This document shows, piece by piece, positions 1-6,451 of a stretch of 7,469 nucleotides of DNA (its first letter is position 1; every line of letters begins with the position of its first letter). The stretch is from a virus (Duplodnaviria; Heunggongvirae; Uroviricota; Caudoviricetes): IMG/VR virus record IMGVR_UViG_2778261691_000002, positions 1 through 7,469 of that record. The stretch is one strand, 5' to 3'. The notes beneath the pieces were generated by a model that searched no databases, had not been told where the DNA came from, and saw only the letters and a program-made list of their open reading frames with translations. Both the position numbers and the translations under genes were made by a program.

Positions 1-46
1 CTGTGTTCTGGTCATTTGTTGACACACGTACATAGCCAATAAGCAT
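1..46 (-). CDS. Serine DNA invertase (Gin/Cin/Pin/Hin family), N-terminal 15 codons only; gene continues beyond the left window edge
   Basis: Reverse complement of 1..46 reads atg ctt att ggc tat gta cgt gtg tca aca aat gac cag aac aca g = MLIGYVRVSTNDQNT, the N-terminus I recognise from Gin/Pin-type invertases, including the catalytic-serine motif YVRVST. SD-like GGGAG lies 7 nt upstream on the minus strand (revcomp of 54..58). Located 55 bp from a 26-bp crossover site. Gin, Cin and Pin cannot be told apart from 15 residues. Confidence 0.85.
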   Translation of the reverse strand, partial: MLIGYVRVSTNDQNT

Positions 47-72: not shown

Positions 73-594
73 ATGATGCCATTTGCTCGTTATTTCTGCA
101 TTTTCATAAACGTTGGTTTGGGAGAAGGTTCTGCGTTGCCTGTTGGCGTACCAGTTCCTTGGCCTTCAGCTACGCCGCCGACAGGCTGGCTGAAATGCAA
201 CGGAGCAGCTTTTTCTGCTGAAGATTACCCTAATCTGGCAAAGGCTTACCCGACGTTAAAATTGCCTGATTTACGCGGTGAGTTTATTCGTGGCTGGGAT
301 GATGGAAAGGGAGTGGATAGTGGGCGAACTCTGCTTTCAGCACAAGGAGATGCTATCCGAAACATTACCGGGGTGGTTGGCTACAGTTCAATTGGCGATT
401 CACAAGGGTTATTAGGATACGTGTCAGGGGCCTTTTCGGCTTCGGAGTCAAAAGCTCCCGCATTAAGTGGTGCATCAGCATCCGGGTATCAACGCTCCCT
501 GTATGCGAATTTTAATGCTTCAGCCGTTGTCCCAACCGCAAATGAGAACCGCCCACGTAACATTGCCTTTAATTATATTGTGAGGGCTGCATAA
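73..594 (+). CDS. Alternative tail-fibre C-terminal cassette (Sv'-like, tail-collar domain), silent in this orientation; functional boundary is the crossover site at 113/114, not the ATG at 73
   Basis: Tail-collar-type motif PTGWLKCNGAAFSAEDYPNLAKAYPTLKLPDLRGEFIRGWDDG. The ORF begins only ~40 nt upstream of the crossover site and has no fibre N-terminal domain. Stop TAA at 592..594 overlaps the ATG of the downstream tfa (TAATG). Confidence 0.75.
   Translation: MMPFARYFCIFINVGLGEGSALPVGVPVPWPSATPPTGWLKCNGAAFSAEDYPNLAKAYPTLKLPDLRGEFIRGWDDGKGVDSGRTLLSAQGDAIRNITGVVGYSSIGDSQGLLGYVSGAFSASESKAPALSGASASGYQRSLYANFNASAVVPTANENRPRNIAFNYIVRAA
101..126. repeat. 26-bp invertase crossover site (gix/pix/hix-like), left copy
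   Basis: Plus strand ttttcataaacg|tt|ggtttgggagaa. The reverse complement of 1992..2017 is ctctcgaaaacc|tt|ggtttgggagaa: 21 of 26 positions identical, same central TT dinucleotide, imperfect dyad symmetry like hix (TTATCAAAAACC TT GGTTTTCAAGAA). Confidence 0.8.
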
Positions 595-1196
595 TGGATA
601 ACGCTGTATTAAATAGCGAGATTATTGCCACGAAGGCAGGGAATATTACCGTCTATAACTATGATGGTGAAACACGGGAATATATTTCCACTTCAAATGA
701 ATATCTTGCCGTTGGTGTTGGTATCCCGGCATATTCCTGTTTAGATTCACCAGGCACATATAAGGCTGGTTATGCTATCTGCCGTTCTGCAGATTTTAAC
801 TCATGGGAATATGTGCCAGACCATCGCGGTGAAATCGTCTATAACACCGAAACGGGAGAAGCCAAAGAAATCACAACTCCGGGTGATTACCCTGAAAATA
901 CAACCACTATCGCCCCGTTAACGCCATACGATAAATGGGATGGTGAGAAATGGGTGACCGATACTGAGGCACAGCACGGCGCAGCAGTAGATGCAGCAGA
1001 AGCACAGCGCCAGTCGCTGATTGATACTGCAATGGCCTCCATCAGTCTGATTCATCTGAAATTACAGGCCGGACGGAAGCTGACGCAGGCAGAAACCACC
1101 CGACTTAACGCTGTGCTGGATTACATTGACGCGGTGACGGCAACAGATACCAGCACCGCGCCGGATGTCATCTGGCCTGAACTGCCGGAGGCGTAG
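594..1196 (+). CDS. Tail fibre assembly chaperone (Tfa family), cognate to the silent fibre cassette
   Basis: 200 aa. C-terminal Tfa signature ...LNAVLDYIDAVTATDTSTAPDVIWPELP (compare lambda Tfa ...VDTSTAPDIEWP...). Start is translationally coupled to the upstream cassette. Length matches what I recall for e14 TfaE. Confidence 0.85.
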   Translation: MDNAVLNSEIIATKAGNITVYNYDGETREYISTSNEYLAVGVGIPAYSCLDSPGTYKAGYAICRSADFNSWEYVPDHRGEIVYNTETGEAKEITTPGDYPENTTTIAPLTPYDKWDGEKWVTDTEAQHGAAVDAAEAQRQSLIDTAMASISLIHLKLQAGRKLTQAETTRLNAVLDYIDAVTATDTSTAPDVIWPELPEA

Positions 1197-1611
1197 GCCA
1201 TTCAATATCTGGCGCCCCGGAAGTATCGACCAGTTCCAGTGCGTCCAGATAATCCAGCCACAAATTATATTGCGCCAGCTCGTCACCTTTCAGACGACCA
1301 ATAGCGGCTTTACCGGGCCATTGTTTACTGTTCATGTATTCGTTGGCCTGGTTAATTAGTAGCTGTCTTTCTGATTCAGTAATTTCAATAAGTTCTTCAT
1401 GCGTGGGTGGAGGAATATCTGCCCACGCAGGCAGCCCATCATCTCCGGCAATACGGATTTTTCCTTGTGGCGGTTCAGCCATAAACTCACTGATAATATT
1501 TTGATTTACTTCCTTAGCGTCTGATAAATCCCACCCCTCTGATTTATATTTATCAATCATATCCACAGGGAAAAAAGCATTATGCCTTGCGCTATAAACA
1601 TATTCGTTCAT
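1168..1611 (-). CDS. Tail fibre assembly chaperone (Tfa family), cognate to the currently expressed fibre
   Basis: C-terminal Tfa signature ...LWLDYLDALELVDTSGAPDIEWPTPP. I prefer the ATG at 1611..1609 (MNEYVYSA...), which has AGGGTGA 7-13 nt upstream, over the GTG at 1620 used by the ORF track. Sits directly downstream of the fibre gene. Confidence 0.8.
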   Translation of the reverse strand: MNEYVYSARHNAFFPVDMIDKYKSEGWDLSDAKEVNQNIISEFMAEPPQGKIRIAGDDGLPAWADIPPPTHEELIEITESERQLLINQANEYMNSKQWPGKAAIGRLKGDELAQYNLWLDYLDALELVDTSGAPDIEWPTPPAVQAR

Positions 1612-1631
1612 ATAAATCACCCTGAATAAAA

Positions 1632-2360
1632 TTACTCACCAACAGCCCACCAACTGTAATTCATCGATACCGTGTCGCTGGTTGATGACGTTCTGTAAGC
1701 AGAATTAAAACCGGTTAATGTTGGGCCTTCTGCGGTCATCACGAATCCCCGCCCAGCACCTAAAGGCGCACCACCATCACCAGAATGAGTAAGCATGGCG
1801 CAGTCCACTTTTTTAGGAAAAGGGATGCTGAATGTAATTCTCATTGTTTGCGTCGATAATGTCGGCGTAACCGCACCACGACCATATTGCAGGATTTTCC
1901 CGTTGGGTAATTTCATCCATCCATCACCACTGGCAAAAGAGGCCATGTCCGGTATCTGATTTTCCCCTGTTCCCACCCCCCGTTTCGCTGCTTCTCCCAA
2001 ACCAAGGTTTTCGAGAGCCGTTTTCACCGTGCCATCCGATTTGATATCACCAAACGGATTCTTGCGGCTCAGGTATTCAACAGCAAACCCCGATCCCAGC
2101 AATTCAACAAAACCGGGCAGATCACCATTATCAAGCACATCCCGTTGCGTTTTATCACTTACAAACTGGGCCAGAGCTGCAGCAATAAAGCTGGCCTGCC
2201 GAATAACCTTATTGACTTGCGCACTGGAGGCTTTCCCTGCTGTAAATCCGGATAAAAGCGCAGGCAACGCTTCCCATTCCTCCTGCGACATAACATTGGC
2301 ATTTTTACCCGTTGCGAATGCTTTAAAGTCATTTTTTGCCATCAGAGTAATACTCCCCAT
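1632..2360 (-). CDS. Tail fibre protein: constant N-terminal part (2360..2006) fused at the crossover site to a variable C-terminal receptor-binding part (1991..1632)
   Basis: Position at the end of the baseplate operon and followed by Tfa. The crossover site is in frame inside the ORF. An alternative start at ATG 2342..2340 (MAKNDF...) overlaps the upstream stop as TGATG and may be the true start. Short for a fibre (236-242 aa). Confidence 0.75.
1992..2017. repeat. 26-bp invertase crossover site, right copy, in inverted orientation relative to 101..126
   Basis: Plus strand ttctcccaaacc|aa|ggttttcgagag. Lies inside the minus-strand tail-fibre ORF, where it encodes ...ALENLGLGE... at the constant/variable junction. 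Confidence 0.8.
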
Positions 2361-3022
2361 GCCCCTACATCAAAACCACTGATAAATTCGTTATCCATAT
2401 CAAAACCAAAAAATTTTGAACCTTCCGATGGGGTTTCCACCGAAGGTGTTTCAATACCACCCGCCCACACCCCGGCGGCTTTTACTGTGAGATATCCCTG
2501 TTTAATTGCAGCAATTAACTCACGCGATACATCTGAAATATCAGTATCAGGAAAGACCCAGACCGATATCGTCATGTCCTGGTTATCGACAATCTGCATT
2601 CGCAGCCCGGATCCTGCTGTCGCCGTGTCAAGAATTGCTGGAAGCGAATCATTCCGTCCGTCCCAGTTATTAATCGCAATCTTCGCTTTAAGAATGACAC
2701 GATAAGTTTCATCGCTGAGATACATGTATCCTGAATCAGGATCGTATGGTCCCTGCCATACCCCCTGATCATATCCAAGCCCGTCGGTATCCCAGCTGAA
2801 ATAGACACCTGAGATAGGCTGGCTGACAACACGGCTACGTCCGATCCACAATCCAAGAATGTCAAGTTGCACACCAACCGCAGAGTCAATATCAAATGCA
2901 GTAATCAGCCCTCTGGTGGCAGCCGCAACATCAATAAGTGGCCGGGTCATCAGATCAACATGCGCAAGAAATTTAGGTTTGGTGGCGTGGTAGTTCGTGA
3001 TTAGTTCGGTGTATTTGCTCAT
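2342..3022 (-). CDS. Baseplate / tail-fibre-proximal protein (DUF2612-like; position equivalent to P2 gpI or Mu gp48)
   Basis: 226 aa. ATGA overlap with the upstream J-like gene at 3019..3022. Sits between the baseplate J-like gene and the tail fibre. Family assignment is by synteny and recollection, not a search. Confidence 0.6.
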
Positions 3023-4218
3023 GTCTCCACCGTTATAACGATATTTTCCGGGGTACAGGACGCAGATTCGTTGTATCTGATATCAATGTTTGATGACGAC
3101 AAAGCCCCCGGGGATTTCCCAATCGTCAGTTCCTGAATATCGTAATAGCGTGCATTCCCGCCACTCACCACGCCAAGATTCGCCGGTGAGTAAATGCGAC
3201 TTAAAAGGACCGAATCACCAATCATCAGACTATTGATATAGTCGGAAATAGCCTGCTGGATCTGCTGCCCTATCTGTGAGGTATAACCCGTAAAAACTTT
3301 TAATTTAATCCGGGCATAAACAGGTACATCACTGGAACGCGAAAATTTGATTACATGGGGATTGCCGTATTTATCCGGAACCGTAACGGATGTTGTACCG
3401 TGAGTGGCTGTTCCCTGGCCTTTATTCCCTCTGATAGCCTGAGCAATATCCGTCACATCACCGCCATCCACAATTACAGCAACAGAGTGTGGCGGTAACC
3501 CGTTACCGTCCTCCGAACCATTATCGTTTTCATAGAGTTTGTGGCGGGTTACACCGGTAACATTAGAAACAGCACCATTCAGTGCTTCAAATGGGGTTAT
3601 TGATGGTAACGCAACACTTTGCGACTGTCGGATACGTAACTCCGCATCAGTTTCTGCTGGAGTGCCTACAGTAGCTGCAGCAGGATTGGTTACCGAAACC
3701 CAGCCACGGGTTGGCGTATTAATTTCAGTGATAGTTCCAGCCAGCGCCGCCACTGCACCACTGACGGAACATGTTGCGGTCACCATCACTGTACCATCCA
3801 CGCCGACCACCACTGAAGCAGGCAAACGCCATATCACATTATTACTGTCTTTCACGCTGCCATTAATGATGGTTGTTCCGGCAGTTCCTGTAAGAAGCAA
3901 ATCAACCGTAGAATTCGTCGCGCCTTTACGTGAAATACCATTTATTTTCACGTTACTGGTCAGTGCAGCCCCATAGCCGGTTGCCGGTGAAAAACAGTTG
4001 TAGACAGTTATCGCCATATTATTGGCATCATGAATCGCCAGCGCCATCAGAGCCACCATCTGGCCGTCTTTGCTGTCCGGTTCGAGGTAGGCATCACTGC
4101 CATAAATCTGCTGAAAATAGCTAATCAGGGTGCTGAGTATCGTCTGATAATCAGGCGCACTGATCCCCTCCGCGGTTACCTTTGCAGATAAACCGAGAGA
4201 ATCAAGGTTCAGAGCCAT
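3019..4218 (-). CDS. Baseplate J-like protein (P2 gpJ / Mu gp47 / T4 gp6 family)
   Basis: 399 aa. TAATG stop/start overlap with the upstream W-like gene at 4216..4220. Position after the gp25/W-like gene. Gly/Thr/Val-rich beta-type composition typical of baseplate wedge proteins. Confidence 0.7.
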   Translation of the reverse strand: MALNLDSLGLSAKVTAEGISAPDYQTILSTLISYFQQIYGSDAYLEPDSKDGQMVALMALAIHDANNMAITVYNCFSPATGYGAALTSNVKINGISRKGATNSTVDLLLTGTAGTTIINGSVKDSNNVIWRLPASVVVGVDGTVMVTATCSVSGAVAALAGTITEINTPTRGWVSVTNPAAATVGTPAETDAELRIRQSQSVALPSITPFEALNGAVSNVTGVTRHKLYENDNGSEDGNGLPPHSVAVIVDGGDVTDIAQAIRGNKGQGTATHGTTSVTVPDKYGNPHVIKFSRSSDVPVYARIKLKVFTGYTSQIGQQIQQAISDYINSLMIGDSVLLSRIYSPANLGVVSGGNARYYDIQELTIGKSPGALSSSNIDIRYNESASCTPENIVITVET

Positions 4219-4571
4219 TACGCCTCCGATGTAACAGTCGTTATTCCATAAAGAGTGTCGATTTCAGCGGAAAACATGACACGTCGGGTCGTGGTATCCA
4301 CCGTCGTATTGAAAGAGAGGATTGATTTAACGCCCTGCGTTTCGAGGATGCGCTTACGGATCGCCAGGTTGTAGGTTTCCGGCTTCTGCTTACCGAGTAC
4401 GGACTGGATCCACGGAGTCCCCTCGGTGGTGTCGAGAAACCATTGCCCATACCACAATTCGAATCGCGTTTTTACCGCCTGCGCCACGGCCTCCGGTGAG
4501 TTAATCAGCCAGGTGTCATCACCGCTGCCAAAGGTGTAATCGCCATCGGCGTCTTCACGTCTGTATCGCAT
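4218..4571 (-). CDS. Baseplate protein, GPW/gp25-like (P2 gpW / Mu gp46 position)
   Basis: 117 aa, the typical size for this family. TGATG overlap with the upstream spike gene at 4569..4573. Synteny V-W-J. Confidence 0.6.
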   Translation of the reverse strand: MRYRREDADGDYTFGSGDDTWLINSPEAVAQAVKTRFELWYGQWFLDTTEGTPWIQSVLGKQKPETYNLAIRKRILETQGVKSILSFNTTVDTTTRRVMFSAEIDTLYGITTVTSEA

Positions 4572-5323
4572 CAGTTTACTCCGTCGGTATTGCTTCCACC
4601 GCGCTGAACACCACCATGAGTGTGCGTATCATCAATTGGCTTGCCGTTAGCCTTCACGCTACCCAAAAACTCAACAGCACCAGTGATTTTTGAAGCCACA
4701 CCAGAAACCACAGACCCCACCATGCCACCCATCCAGGTTAACAGGCCATGAATGGTTACTTTCTCAGAAAAATCAGCCAGAGGGGCAACCACATCAAGAC
4801 CACCCGGAGCGACAATTTTAATTTTCCTGGTATCAGGATTAAGCTCAAAATAGGTGCTGCCGTCATCACTACGCAACTGTGTGGCACTGGTATTAATACC
4901 GCTAATCTTCCTTGCCTGCGACTGGGGACCGACAATACAAAACGCATCCGATAAATCATGCATTCTGTCATCGACCGGCTCCTGTATCCCGCCGCTCTGC
5001 CACCAGAAATCAATACAACGATCGGCAAAAATCATCAAACATTCATCACCGGCTTTAACTGGGAACGTTAGCGTGCATCCTCCGCCGCGCGGGAATACCA
5101 CTGGCACATCCACCAGCAATGGGTAATTTTGGGTAATGCGGTTGCCGTCATTATCCTTTTCAACCGAACGGATAGCAGGCTGCACAACTGCCGTCACCGC
5201 ATCAGGATCGAATGACTGAATAATGCCAGGCAAGGCGACACGGATCTGGTTCTTTGTTGTTTCCCGTTCAGATTTGAATGTTTCGGCAAGGTCGCCGCTG
5301 CGGGTCTGGTCAGATACGGCCAT
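4571..5323 (-). CDS. Baseplate central spike / assembly protein V-like (P2 gpV / Mu gp45 position)
   Basis: 250 aa. ATG at 5323..5321 with GGAG about 10 nt upstream. C-terminal tip ...KPIDDTHTHGGVQRGG has an HxH motif like the metal-binding spike apex. First gene after the inserted cassette and terminator. Confidence 0.65.
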   Translation of the reverse strand: MAVSDQTRSGDLAETFKSERETTKNQIRVALPGIIQSFDPDAVTAVVQPAIRSVEKDNDGNRITQNYPLLVDVPVVFPRGGGCTLTFPVKAGDECLMIFADRCIDFWWQSGGIQEPVDDRMHDLSDAFCIVGPQSQARKISGINTSATQLRSDDGSTYFELNPDTRKIKIVAPGGLDVVAPLADFSEKVTIHGLLTWMGGMVGSVVSGVASKITGAVEFLGSVKANGKPIDDTHTHGGVQRGGSNTDGVN

Positions 5324-5342: not shown

Positions 5343-5367
5343 AAAAAACCCGCCTGGTGGCGGGTTT
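5343..5367 (-). terminator. Rho-independent terminator for minus-strand transcription
   Basis: Minus-strand RNA: aaacccgcc-acca-ggcggguuuuuu. A GC-rich 6-9 bp stem (cccgcc/ggcggg at 5349..5354 and 5359..5364), 4-nt loop, then a U6 tract. Lies 18 nt downstream of the 57-aa ORF stop and ~20 nt upstream of the spike gene SD. Confidence 0.8.
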
Positions 5368-5384
5368 GATTTATAAGAACTTCA

Positions 5385-5558
5385 CTAACTATCTTTCTTG
5401 GGAAAAGTTGAAGGCTTGTCGTGATAGCTTTCCGTCATAATTTCGATATCCCCGAAAGGTACTCTAGCCATAATCTCTTGCTCATAGTTATCTAGGAAAG
5501 AGACCTCAGGCTCACTTGGTTTAGGTTGTGGTTCATTTTGGTCTTCTGGACAGGACAT
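5385..5558 (-). CDS. Hypothetical small acidic Pro/Glu-rich protein (57 aa), putative partner of the membrane protein
   Basis: Hand translation: MSCPEDQNEPQPKPSEPEVSFLDNYEQEIMARVPFGDIEIMTESYHDKPSTFPKKDS. The ATG at 5558 is 2 nt after the TGA of the upstream membrane gene (TGAatATG), with AAGG 7 nt upstream. Ends 18 nt before the terminator. Not in the ORF track (under 60 aa). No family recognised; could be non-coding. Confidence 0.4.
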   Translation of the reverse strand: MSCPEDQNEPQPKPSEPEVSFLDNYEQEIMARVPFGDIEIMTESYHDKPSTFPKKDS

Positions 5559-5560
5559 AT

Positions 5561-6091
5561 TCAAACCTTACTTATTAACATGCACGTTACAGAAATAATA
5601 AAAAATACAAATGACATAACCATCCATCGAAACAACTCATTTACAAACGCTGATTTTTCTTTATGGATTTTCTCGATTCTATCAATAGCCCTACCATACA
5701 TTATCAAATGAAATCTGACTGTGTCATCTCTACTACCCCTCAGAAGAAATTCATGTTGTTCAGGTGTTCGATGCACAGGCATTTTGGGAATATTTCTAAG
5801 TTCCCAACATTTCCATAAATAATAAAAACAAAAAACCAAACATACAAAACATGAACATAGACACAATAGAGACAATCTTGCGGATAGACTAGTCTTTAAC
5901 TGTTGTCCCAGCTCAAAGGACCCAAAAACGGCTAATAATGCAGAAATCTCAACACCAAGCACAGCAAGAAGAAAATTAGCTTTGTCCTCTAACCGCCTGT
6001 ATGTTGTCTTAACTTCTTCATACCTGTCTCTCGAGTACGACAAAATCGTATCTACTTCAAGGCCAACAGCCTCATTCCTTTGATTGCACAT
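5561..6091 (-). CDS. Hypothetical three-TM membrane protein (176 aa) encoded in an AT-rich insert; no family recognised
   Basis: ATG at 6091..6089. Charged N-terminal ~40 aa, then hydrophobic segments FLLAVLGVEISALLAVFGSF, LSLLCLCSCFVCLVFCFYYLW and WMVMSFVFFIISVTCMLI, with a charged ~60-aa loop between the second and third. An open frame of 176 codons in roughly 36% GC DNA is unlikely by chance. Begins 6 nt after the stop of the signal-peptide gene. Confidence 0.6.
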   Translation of the reverse strand: MCNQRNEAVGLEVDTILSYSRDRYEEVKTTYRRLEDKANFLLAVLGVEISALLAVFGSFELGQQLKTSLSARLSLLCLCSCFVCLVFCFYYLWKCWELRNIPKMPVHRTPEQHEFLLRGSRDDTVRFHLIMYGRAIDRIEKIHKEKSAFVNELFRWMVMSFVFFIISVTCMLISKV

Positions 6092-6097
6092 ATTGTA

Positions 6098-6451
6098 TTA
6101 ATCGTCAACCTTCTTACAAGGAAACGAACCTATGATTCTCGGCGCATCCATGCTGTTCTGCAGTAGTTGGACATTCAAGAAACGCGTTTCGGTACCCGGA
6201 CGGCGAATGAACTCGAAACCGTAATTGTTACCGTCTTTGGCTGGCATAAGCCCCATATCCGCCTTCATTCCATTACCGTTGCCGAGCGTTTTGATTTTCT
6301 GGGAGGTAACTGTCTCACCATTAATCCTGAACAATGAATCAGGAATCAACTCTAATTTGTAGCCACCACACTGAAGCGTGACACCGCCAGGATTCGCAGC
6401 AAATGCGAACCCCGGAAGGAAACAGAGTCCAATAACAATCCACTTTTTCAC
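6098..6451 (-). CDS. Hypothetical secreted/periplasmic protein with Sec signal peptide (117 aa)
   Basis: N-terminus MKKWIVIGLCFLPGFAFA|ANPGG is a classic signal peptide with an AFA-A signal peptidase I site and no lipobox. GTG start at 6451..6449 shares one base with the TAG of the upstream gene (taGTG), with GAGG upstream. Two Cys in the mature part (possible disulfide). Normal GC (~47%). Confidence 0.65.
   Translation of the reverse strand: MKKWIVIGLCFLPGFAFAANPGGVTLQCGGYKLELIPDSLFRINGETVTSQKIKTLGNGNGMKADMGLMPAKDGNNYGFEFIRRPGTETRFLNVQLLQNSMDAPRIIGSFPCKKVDD

Follow-up and report, generated by a model that had tools for sequence, protein, structure and literature searches.

A probable Pin-type invertible segment ends the tail-fibre operon of a SEN34/E217-like Escherichia coli prophage

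What is the role of two inverted 26-bp repeats, one of which lies inside a tail-fibre gene, at the distal end of a prophage tail operon? The question is raised by a stretch of 7,469 nucleotides of a tailed virus (IMG/VR record IMGVR_UViG_2778261691_000002), hereafter the window, which is the entire 7469-bp draft contig NLHC01000045.1 (assembly GCA_002226375.1). The original prediction, made from the nucleotide sequence alone, was that positions 101–2017 form a complete, apparently intact host-range switch of the Gin/Pin type. Our analysis indicates that positions 113–2005 are, very probably, an invertible P segment of the Pin type (Gin/Cin/Hin/Pin family), which ends the baseplate and tail-fibre operon of a SEN34/E217-like E. 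coli myovirus prophage. The assignment to the Gin/Pin type is supported by the identity of the sites with those of the e14 element, by an invertase N-terminus identical to that of PinE, and by the presence of the flipped gene fusions in near-identical prophages. The switch is not complete within 101–2017, however, because the invertase gene is located outside this interval and only its first 15 codons (46..2, minus strand) are contained in the window. Switches of this kind are already known biology, and the mechanism is the textbook one of Pin and Gin.

The two crossover sites, both of the pix type, are located at positions 101–126 (TTTTCATAAACGTTGGTTTGGGAGAA; proximal to the invertase, with the core dinucleotide TT at 113–114) and 1992–2017 (TTCTCCCAAACCAAGGTTTTCGAGAG; internal to the fibre gene, with the core dinucleotide AA at 2004–2005). 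Exact comparison of the reverse complement of the first site with the second confirmed the predicted inverted pair with the TT/AA core: 21 of the 26 positions are identical, all five mismatches are confined to the outer half-sites, and the inner half-site together with the core (14 nt) is the same in both. A repeat search delineated the core of the pair as two arms of 20 nt, 108–127 and 1991–2010, that are 95% complementary; the self-palindromy of each individual site is imperfect (16/26 and 18/26). In both sites, again as predicted, the codons GGT TTG GGA GAA encode Gly-Leu-Gly-Glu (GLGE) in the frame of the respective cassette, at 115–126 on the plus strand and at 2003–1992 on the minus strand.

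A full-text literature search for the exact pix and hix sequences, and for gix, cix, hix and pix by name, yielded nothing useful, and the sites were therefore compared directly with the genome records of K-12, Mu and a P1-like phage. Both sites of the window match, at all 26 positions, the pair of crossover sites bounding the P segment of the cryptic prophage e14 (E. coli K-12 MG1655): the site at 101–126 matches the one that adjoins pinE inside stfE (7606–7631 of L007; L numbers denote the sequences compared with the window), and the site at 1992–2017 the one inside stfP (5779–5804 of L007). The alignment to the Mu and P1 sites, which had been suggested along with the prediction, is likewise in register, with 18 of 26 positions shared with the annotated boundaries of the Mu G segment (gix, TTCCTGTAAACCGAGGTTTTGGATAA) and 20 of 26 with cix of the P1-like phage JL22. 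PinE and PinQ have been reported to invert the e14 segment at TTGGTTTGGGAGAAGG (PMC12529663), and the same sequence occupies positions 113–128 of the window. No third crossover site, of the kind found in Min- or shufflon-like multi-inversion systems, was detected within 8 mismatches in the window, and the switch is therefore a simple, two-state one.

By the geometry of the sites, the invertible segment extends over 1893 bp from core to core (113–2005). The right-hand core falls at the join between the constant and variable parts of the fibre. The constant N-terminal stem (2006–2342, minus strand; about 112 amino acids before the core, or 117 when counted up to GLGE) matches tail-fibre N-termini (phrog_1396 and phrog_11303) and is continuous, in a single open reading frame (ORF), with the variable tip that is expressed in the present orientation (1632–2005, minus strand). 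This tip consists of GLGE followed by 119 amino acids and contains a Gp53-like_C domain (Pfam, E = 2.2e-12, in a scan of the ORF 1632–2360; the real gene is 1632–2342 and encodes 236 amino acids). At the other end of the segment, on the plus strand, an unjoined, promoter-distal tip (115–594, contained in the mechanically delimited ORF 73–594) consists of GLGE followed by 155 amino acids of the tail-collar type (Pfam Collar, E = 1.5e-15; phrog_523, tail collar fibre). When positions 113–2005 are flipped in silico, the same stem continues into GSALPVGVPVPWPSATPPTGWLKCNG at the junction and an uninterrupted ORF of 272 amino acids is formed. Both fusions, that of 236 amino acids in the present state and that of 272 in the flipped one, are open, and the predicted swap of C-termini of about 120 and 156 amino acids was reproduced with lengths of 119 and 155.

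Each cassette also carries its own Tfa chaperone with a Caudo_TAP domain, in agreement with the original prediction. The chaperone of the collar cassette, TfaE-like and 200 amino acids long, is encoded at 594–1196 on the plus strand (E = 6.6e-32), and that of the Gp53-like cassette, 147 amino acids long, at 1168–1611 on the minus strand (E = 1.7e-30, in a scan of the ORF 1168–1620; the gene call is 1168–1611). The two tfa genes converge, with their 3' ends overlapping by 29 bp (1168–1196). An additional inverted repeat, 1115–1132 and 1241–1258, is accounted for by the C-terminal motif LDYIDA or LDYLDA that is present in both chaperones.

In the proposed cycle, the fibre would be read from position 2342 on the minus strand through about 112 constant codons and into the right 26-bp site inside the coding sequence. 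In the present orientation, this would yield the stem with the 119-amino-acid Gp53-like, putative receptor-binding tip, followed by the Tfa of that tip (1611–1168). The serine invertase, encoded divergently and starting 55 bp from the left site on its outer side, would bring the two sites together, cleave them at the central AA/TT, rotate the DNA and rejoin it, leaving the 1893-bp segment reversed; Fis bound to an enhancer within the invertase gene presumably would assist, as in Gin and Hin. After the flip, the stem would be in frame with the 155-amino-acid tail-collar tip, and the TfaE-like chaperone (594–1196) would come next. Because either tip could be joined to the same stem, a lysogen population would release two kinds of particles with different adsorption specificities. 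On the model of Mu G and P1 C, the two tips may be expected to differ in adsorption and host range.

The P segment of e14 and its PinE system were reportedly described by Plasterk and van de Putte in 1985 (as cited in PMC4272514). The window shares with e14 not only both 26-bp sites but also the gene order (stfP-tfaP-tfaE-stfE-pinE), the 55-bp spacing between site and invertase, the 29-bp overlap of the convergent tfa genes (6518–6546 of L007 in e14), and the first 15 residues of the invertase (MLIGYVRVSTNDQNT, identical to residues 1–15 of K-12 PinE). Identity to the K-12 proteins amounts to 90% for the TfaE-like chaperone (with TfaE) and 59% for the collar cassette (with StfE); furthermore, a stretch of 27 residues just before the site is common to the stem and StfP. 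Beyond about 52 nt from the site, in contrast, the constant stem is unrelated to that of e14, and the matches to e14-like elements span positions 1–2069 of the window because the homology runs this far past the right site into the stem. The two elements also differ in the baseplate, which is SEN34/E217-like here (wedge1/DUF2612 and the PF18352 spike) and a Mu-like jayE/ymfQ remnant in e14, in the Gp53-like tip, where identity to StfP is only 35%, and its Tfa (54% to TfaP), and in the length of the segment, 1893 bp from core to core in the window compared to 1797 bp given for e14 by Kirigo et al. (PMC12529663).

The resemblance to the Mu G/Gin and P1 C/Cin systems is in the architecture: two inverted 26-bp sites, one of them at the constant/variable join of the fibre, two alternative C-termini each accompanied by a chaperone, in convergent arrangement, and a serine invertase just outside one site. 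The core dinucleotide of Mu is GA rather than AA, and the cassettes of Mu G (about 3 kb) and P1 C are much larger, with tips that are not homologous to those of the window. Cin of JL22 and Gin of SfMu are 83% and 78% identical to PinE, respectively, whereas those of relatives with the same backbone as the window are 95–97% identical. P2-like E. coli prophages (L001, L023/L024; also phage pro483) are similar in a different respect. They possess the same pair of cassettes (positions 101–2010 of the window are 96% identical to L001), including the identical 147-amino-acid Tfa, and they occur in both orientations (L023 vs L024). However, their stem is a long P2 gpH-type fibre, 509 amino acids when fused, their fibre-side outer half-site differs (TTCTCCCAAACCAAGGTATGTGAGAA), their invertase is 86% identical to PinE, and homology with the window ends at the site, at about 2010–2016.

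Altogether, the module of invertase, segment and sites is found on P2-like fibres (L001, L023, L024, L027 and L030), on Mu/e14-like baseplates (L010, L011 and L026) and, as in the window, on the SEN34/E217-like tail, and the 147-amino-acid Tfa is an identical protein in P2-like, Mu-like and SEN34-like prophages. The locus thus provides a clean worked example of a single module of pin and segment plugged onto three unrelated myovirus tail types. As a discovery its value is small: the sites are identical to those of e14, and segment-related matches were obtained in 2903 of the 5426 complete genomes of E. coli searched, the median number of places per matching genome being two.

Both orientations occur for elements of this type. 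For e14 itself, the two orientations of the segment have been shown to coexist in cultures of MG1655 (PMC4272514). Sequences of the flipped junction and of the 2.4-kb region in its flipped form were constructed and, along with the present state, used as queries against the 5426 complete E. coli genomes. The junction of stem and collar tip was detected in 62 genomes, with at least 80% coverage in one piece, and that of stem and Gp53-like tip in 87. Over the full 2.4 kb on the wedge1/DUF2612 backbone, the state of the window was found in 4 genomes (H1–H4) and the flipped state in 7 (H101–H107). Among the loci with this backbone, L012, L028 and L036 are flipped and L019, L025 and L029 are window-like; L028 and L029 represent the same prophage type in opposite states. 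In L036, which shares 99% identity with the window along 5.5 kb of the backbone, the alignment to the flipped window continues through the junction into the collar cassette, next to which there is an intact invertase of 184 amino acids.

The reversal is exact in two sister isolates of hospital origin (CH458 and CH423), each harbouring an e14-like prophage with identical sites. On either side the sequences show 100% identity, over 3127 and 3079 nt, and the 1881 nt that lie between the sites in one isolate are the precise reverse complement of those in the other. The fused collar-type fibre of CH423 (L011, 4799–5312) is annotated as a pseudogene with a "missing C-terminus" despite this exact inversion, and it may be that one orientation of this e14-like element yields a defective fibre or that the annotation pipeline mishandles the fusion. 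Prophages at argW/intS, the attachment site of CPS-53/KpLE1, also are present in both states, with the Gp53-like tip joined in L002 and the collar tip joined in L008 and L012, the latter having an intact 184-amino-acid pinE product. In the BLAST survey of Kirigo et al., inversions were found only in e14 and not in CPS-53 (PMC12529663); the K-12 CPS-53 remnant that served as their query probably lacks the segment.

A further indication, an indirect one, concerns the source strain itself. The Logan unitig SRR3987977_615 (L004), 1893 bp in length, corresponds exactly to positions 113–2005 of the window, from core to core. Logan assemblies use 31-mers, and the perfect inverted repeat at the sites is only 14–15 nt long, so that the repeat cannot by itself branch the assembly graph. 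The break at both cores therefore means that each end occurs in a second sequence context, which could be the flipped orientation in the source reads. As a separate observation, 129 of the 493 index blocks that contain the 147-amino-acid Tfa lack contigs above 2 kb. Fragmentation at this switch seems to be a systematic feature of assemblies, and the presence of the switch explains the breaks in short-read assemblies at this place.

Several facts weigh against a working switch. The graph would be interrupted at the same two positions if another prophage carried a second, 100% identical copy of the segment, although this appears less likely because the exact 200-amino-acid Tfa is on record on only two contigs, those of the window and the unitig. 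The invertase gene of the window (1–46, minus strand) runs off the contig end after codon 15, with only 46 nt inside, and the expected enhancer region lies beyond the left end; in Gin, Hin and Cin, the Fis-dependent recombinational enhancer acts in cis from within the 5' part of the invertase gene. Finally, in about half of the roughly 25 loci with the same backbone, the invertase is truncated or deleted or half of the segment is deleted. The description of the switch as complete and apparently intact is thus not sustained, given the end of the contig at codon 15 of the invertase and the many relatives with truncated or deleted invertases.

The decayed loci (L002, L005/6, L008, L009, L015–L018, L021, L022, L033 and L035) illustrate different routes of loss. 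About 35 invertase residues are kept in L002, fused to an unrelated gene; remnants of about 104 amino acids are found in L005/6 and L021, and remnants of 31 amino acids in L033 and L035. In L008 and L009, the invertase and half of the segment are gone and, accordingly, these prophages are frozen in the collar state. It is conceivable, although unlikely in our assessment, that the window is such a relic as well, with the architecture of a Pin system but with the adjacent invertase truncated or lost, the contig break marking an insertion or deletion, and the fibre permanently of the Gp53-like form. Both the position of the break, 46 nt into the invertase gene, and the decay in close relatives (L002, L005/6, L021, L033, L035, L008 and L009) are compatible with this possibility. 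Nevertheless, a break inside pin is also expected of a multi-copy gene in a short-read assembly: with pin-linked segments at a median of two places per genome, the shared pin gene alone can end a contig. The unitig bounded exactly by both core dinucleotides, in turn, suggests that the reads contain another junction context. Furthermore, these sites are recombined in trans by enzymes of the Pin family, an example being the action of PinQ, from the Qin prophage, on e14 (PMC12529663), and therefore the loss of the invertase in cis need not freeze the switch. Other relatives with the same backbone retain an intact invertase, and those that are 97–100% identical to the window over the first 100 nt encode proteins of 184 amino acids with Resolvase and HTH_7 domains; the small serine recombinases of Gin/Cin/Hin/Pin systems typically combine a Resolvase catalytic domain with HTH_7 at the C-terminus in about 185–190 amino acids. 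We favour a Pin-type switch, with an invertase that presumably is intact in the source strain.

The other alternative that deserves discussion starts from the spacer (47–100) that separates the left site from the start of the invertase gene. This spacer has the same length as in e14 and contains the ATGATG start (73/76) of the ORF 73–594. In this ORF, a leader of 14 residues (MMPFARYFCIFINV, 73–114), also present in K-12 stfE, reads through the left site into the collar tip. Two diverged spacer families (L001, L021, L023 and L027) preserve both the ATGATG and the open frame although many of their leader codons differ, the peptide variants being MMPFARYFCIFINV, MMPVSHYLCIFINV and MMPVSRNRCIFLNV. 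For annotators, the consequence is that a "phage tail protein" ORF such as 73–594 next to pin represents a cassette fused to a leader rather than a full-length fibre gene. In the flipped window, the same leader would be joined to the Gp53-like domain in a predicted protein of 137 amino acids, the analogue of StfE2 of e14.

Kirigo et al. reported in 2025 that StfE2, a chimera of the StfE leader and the Gp53-like domain, blocks the adsorption of T2 and other phages after inversion by PinQ or PinE (PMC12529663). By extension, the invertase-side cassette of the window could be translated from the leader in each orientation, and the free receptor-binding protein could coat receptors, in which case the locus would be a host-defence switch instead of, or besides, a host-range switch. 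We regard this as improbable. The leader, the sites and the layout are those of e14, the start codons and frame are conserved across the two spacer families, and the NCBI annotation pipeline calls leader-fused ORFs as genes in relatives. However, the Gp53-like domain of the window is only 35% identical to that of StfP, and the overlap of the leader with the 5' region of the invertase gene and with the outer half-site might be enough to explain its conservation. A sigma-70 promoter scan of positions 1–2500 produced no convincing candidate for either the invertase or the leader ORF, with matches at the level expected from shuffled sequences, although the sequence available upstream of the leader amounts to only 72 nt. 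In addition, the prophage backbone appears structurally complete in relatives, such that the fibre role is sufficient. If the defence function were real, an apparently functional prophage would possess a switch that doubles as a recombinase-activated host defence, as claimed for the cryptic e14 (PMC12529663).

The notion that the site pair is a chance inverted repeat without any recombination function can be considered refuted: although an inverted pair with 21 of 26 identical positions was reached in 3 of 40 order-1 Markov shuffles (7.5 kb), so that this figure alone does not set the pair apart from chance, the complete identity of both sites with those of K-12 e14 does, and the sites lie in frame at the constant/variable join of the fibre, a PinE-type start is found 55 bp from the left site, and the sister isolates show an exact inversion between identical sites.

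The Pin-type segment adjoins the distal portion of a myovirus tail operon, which occupies the minus strand of the window as judged from ORFs, Pfam domains, gene calls and phrog matches. From the right end, the order is the baseplate hub (from beyond the window to 6451), three small cargo ORFs (6451–5385), the spike (PF18352; 5323–4571), the sheath initiator (4571–4218), Baseplate_J (4218–3019), wedge1/DUF2612 (3022–2342) and the short tail fibre, the last gene of the operon (2342–1632). The Pfam-supported block at 2342–5323, from wedge1/DUF2612 and Baseplate_J to the sheath initiator and spike, is the baseplate operon that drives the fibre, and the start of the fibre gene overlaps the wedge stop. 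Induced E. coli prophages, such as Escherichia phage vB_EcoM-606R2, share 97% identity with the backbone, and its identity to Salmonella phage SEN34 (79%) and Yersinia phage YP3 is about 79–81%. The same prophage type is present at several insertion sites in complete E. coli genomes, including argW/intS, and an exact look-up of the wedge protein returned 695 index blocks. A search of the whole window against Rfam identified no RNA families.

The cargo cassette between the hub and spike genes (5385–6451, minus strand) has a low GC content (0.32–0.41, against about 0.50 in the surrounding sequence). It encodes a protein of 117 amino acids with a signal-like N-terminus (phrog_3443), a protein of 176 amino acids (phrog_18554) in which three hydrophobic segments are discernible by eye, and, following the latter, an acidic ORF of 57 amino acids; a strong terminator-like hairpin at 5367–5346 closes the cassette. 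The 176-amino-acid protein weakly matches PycTM, a Pycsar effector (E = 2.6e-4), and the exact protein is widespread, being present in 1590 index blocks, including E. coli IAI1. In relatives, the slot between hub and spike contains varying cargo, such as DUF2335, a YafO-type toxin, DUF4236, DUF4282 and others (L002, 11361–11933; L017, 7241–7657; L015, 7209–7499; L008, 7655–7894). The slot looks like a moron or defence hotspot within the baseplate operon of this SEN34/E217-like prophage family.

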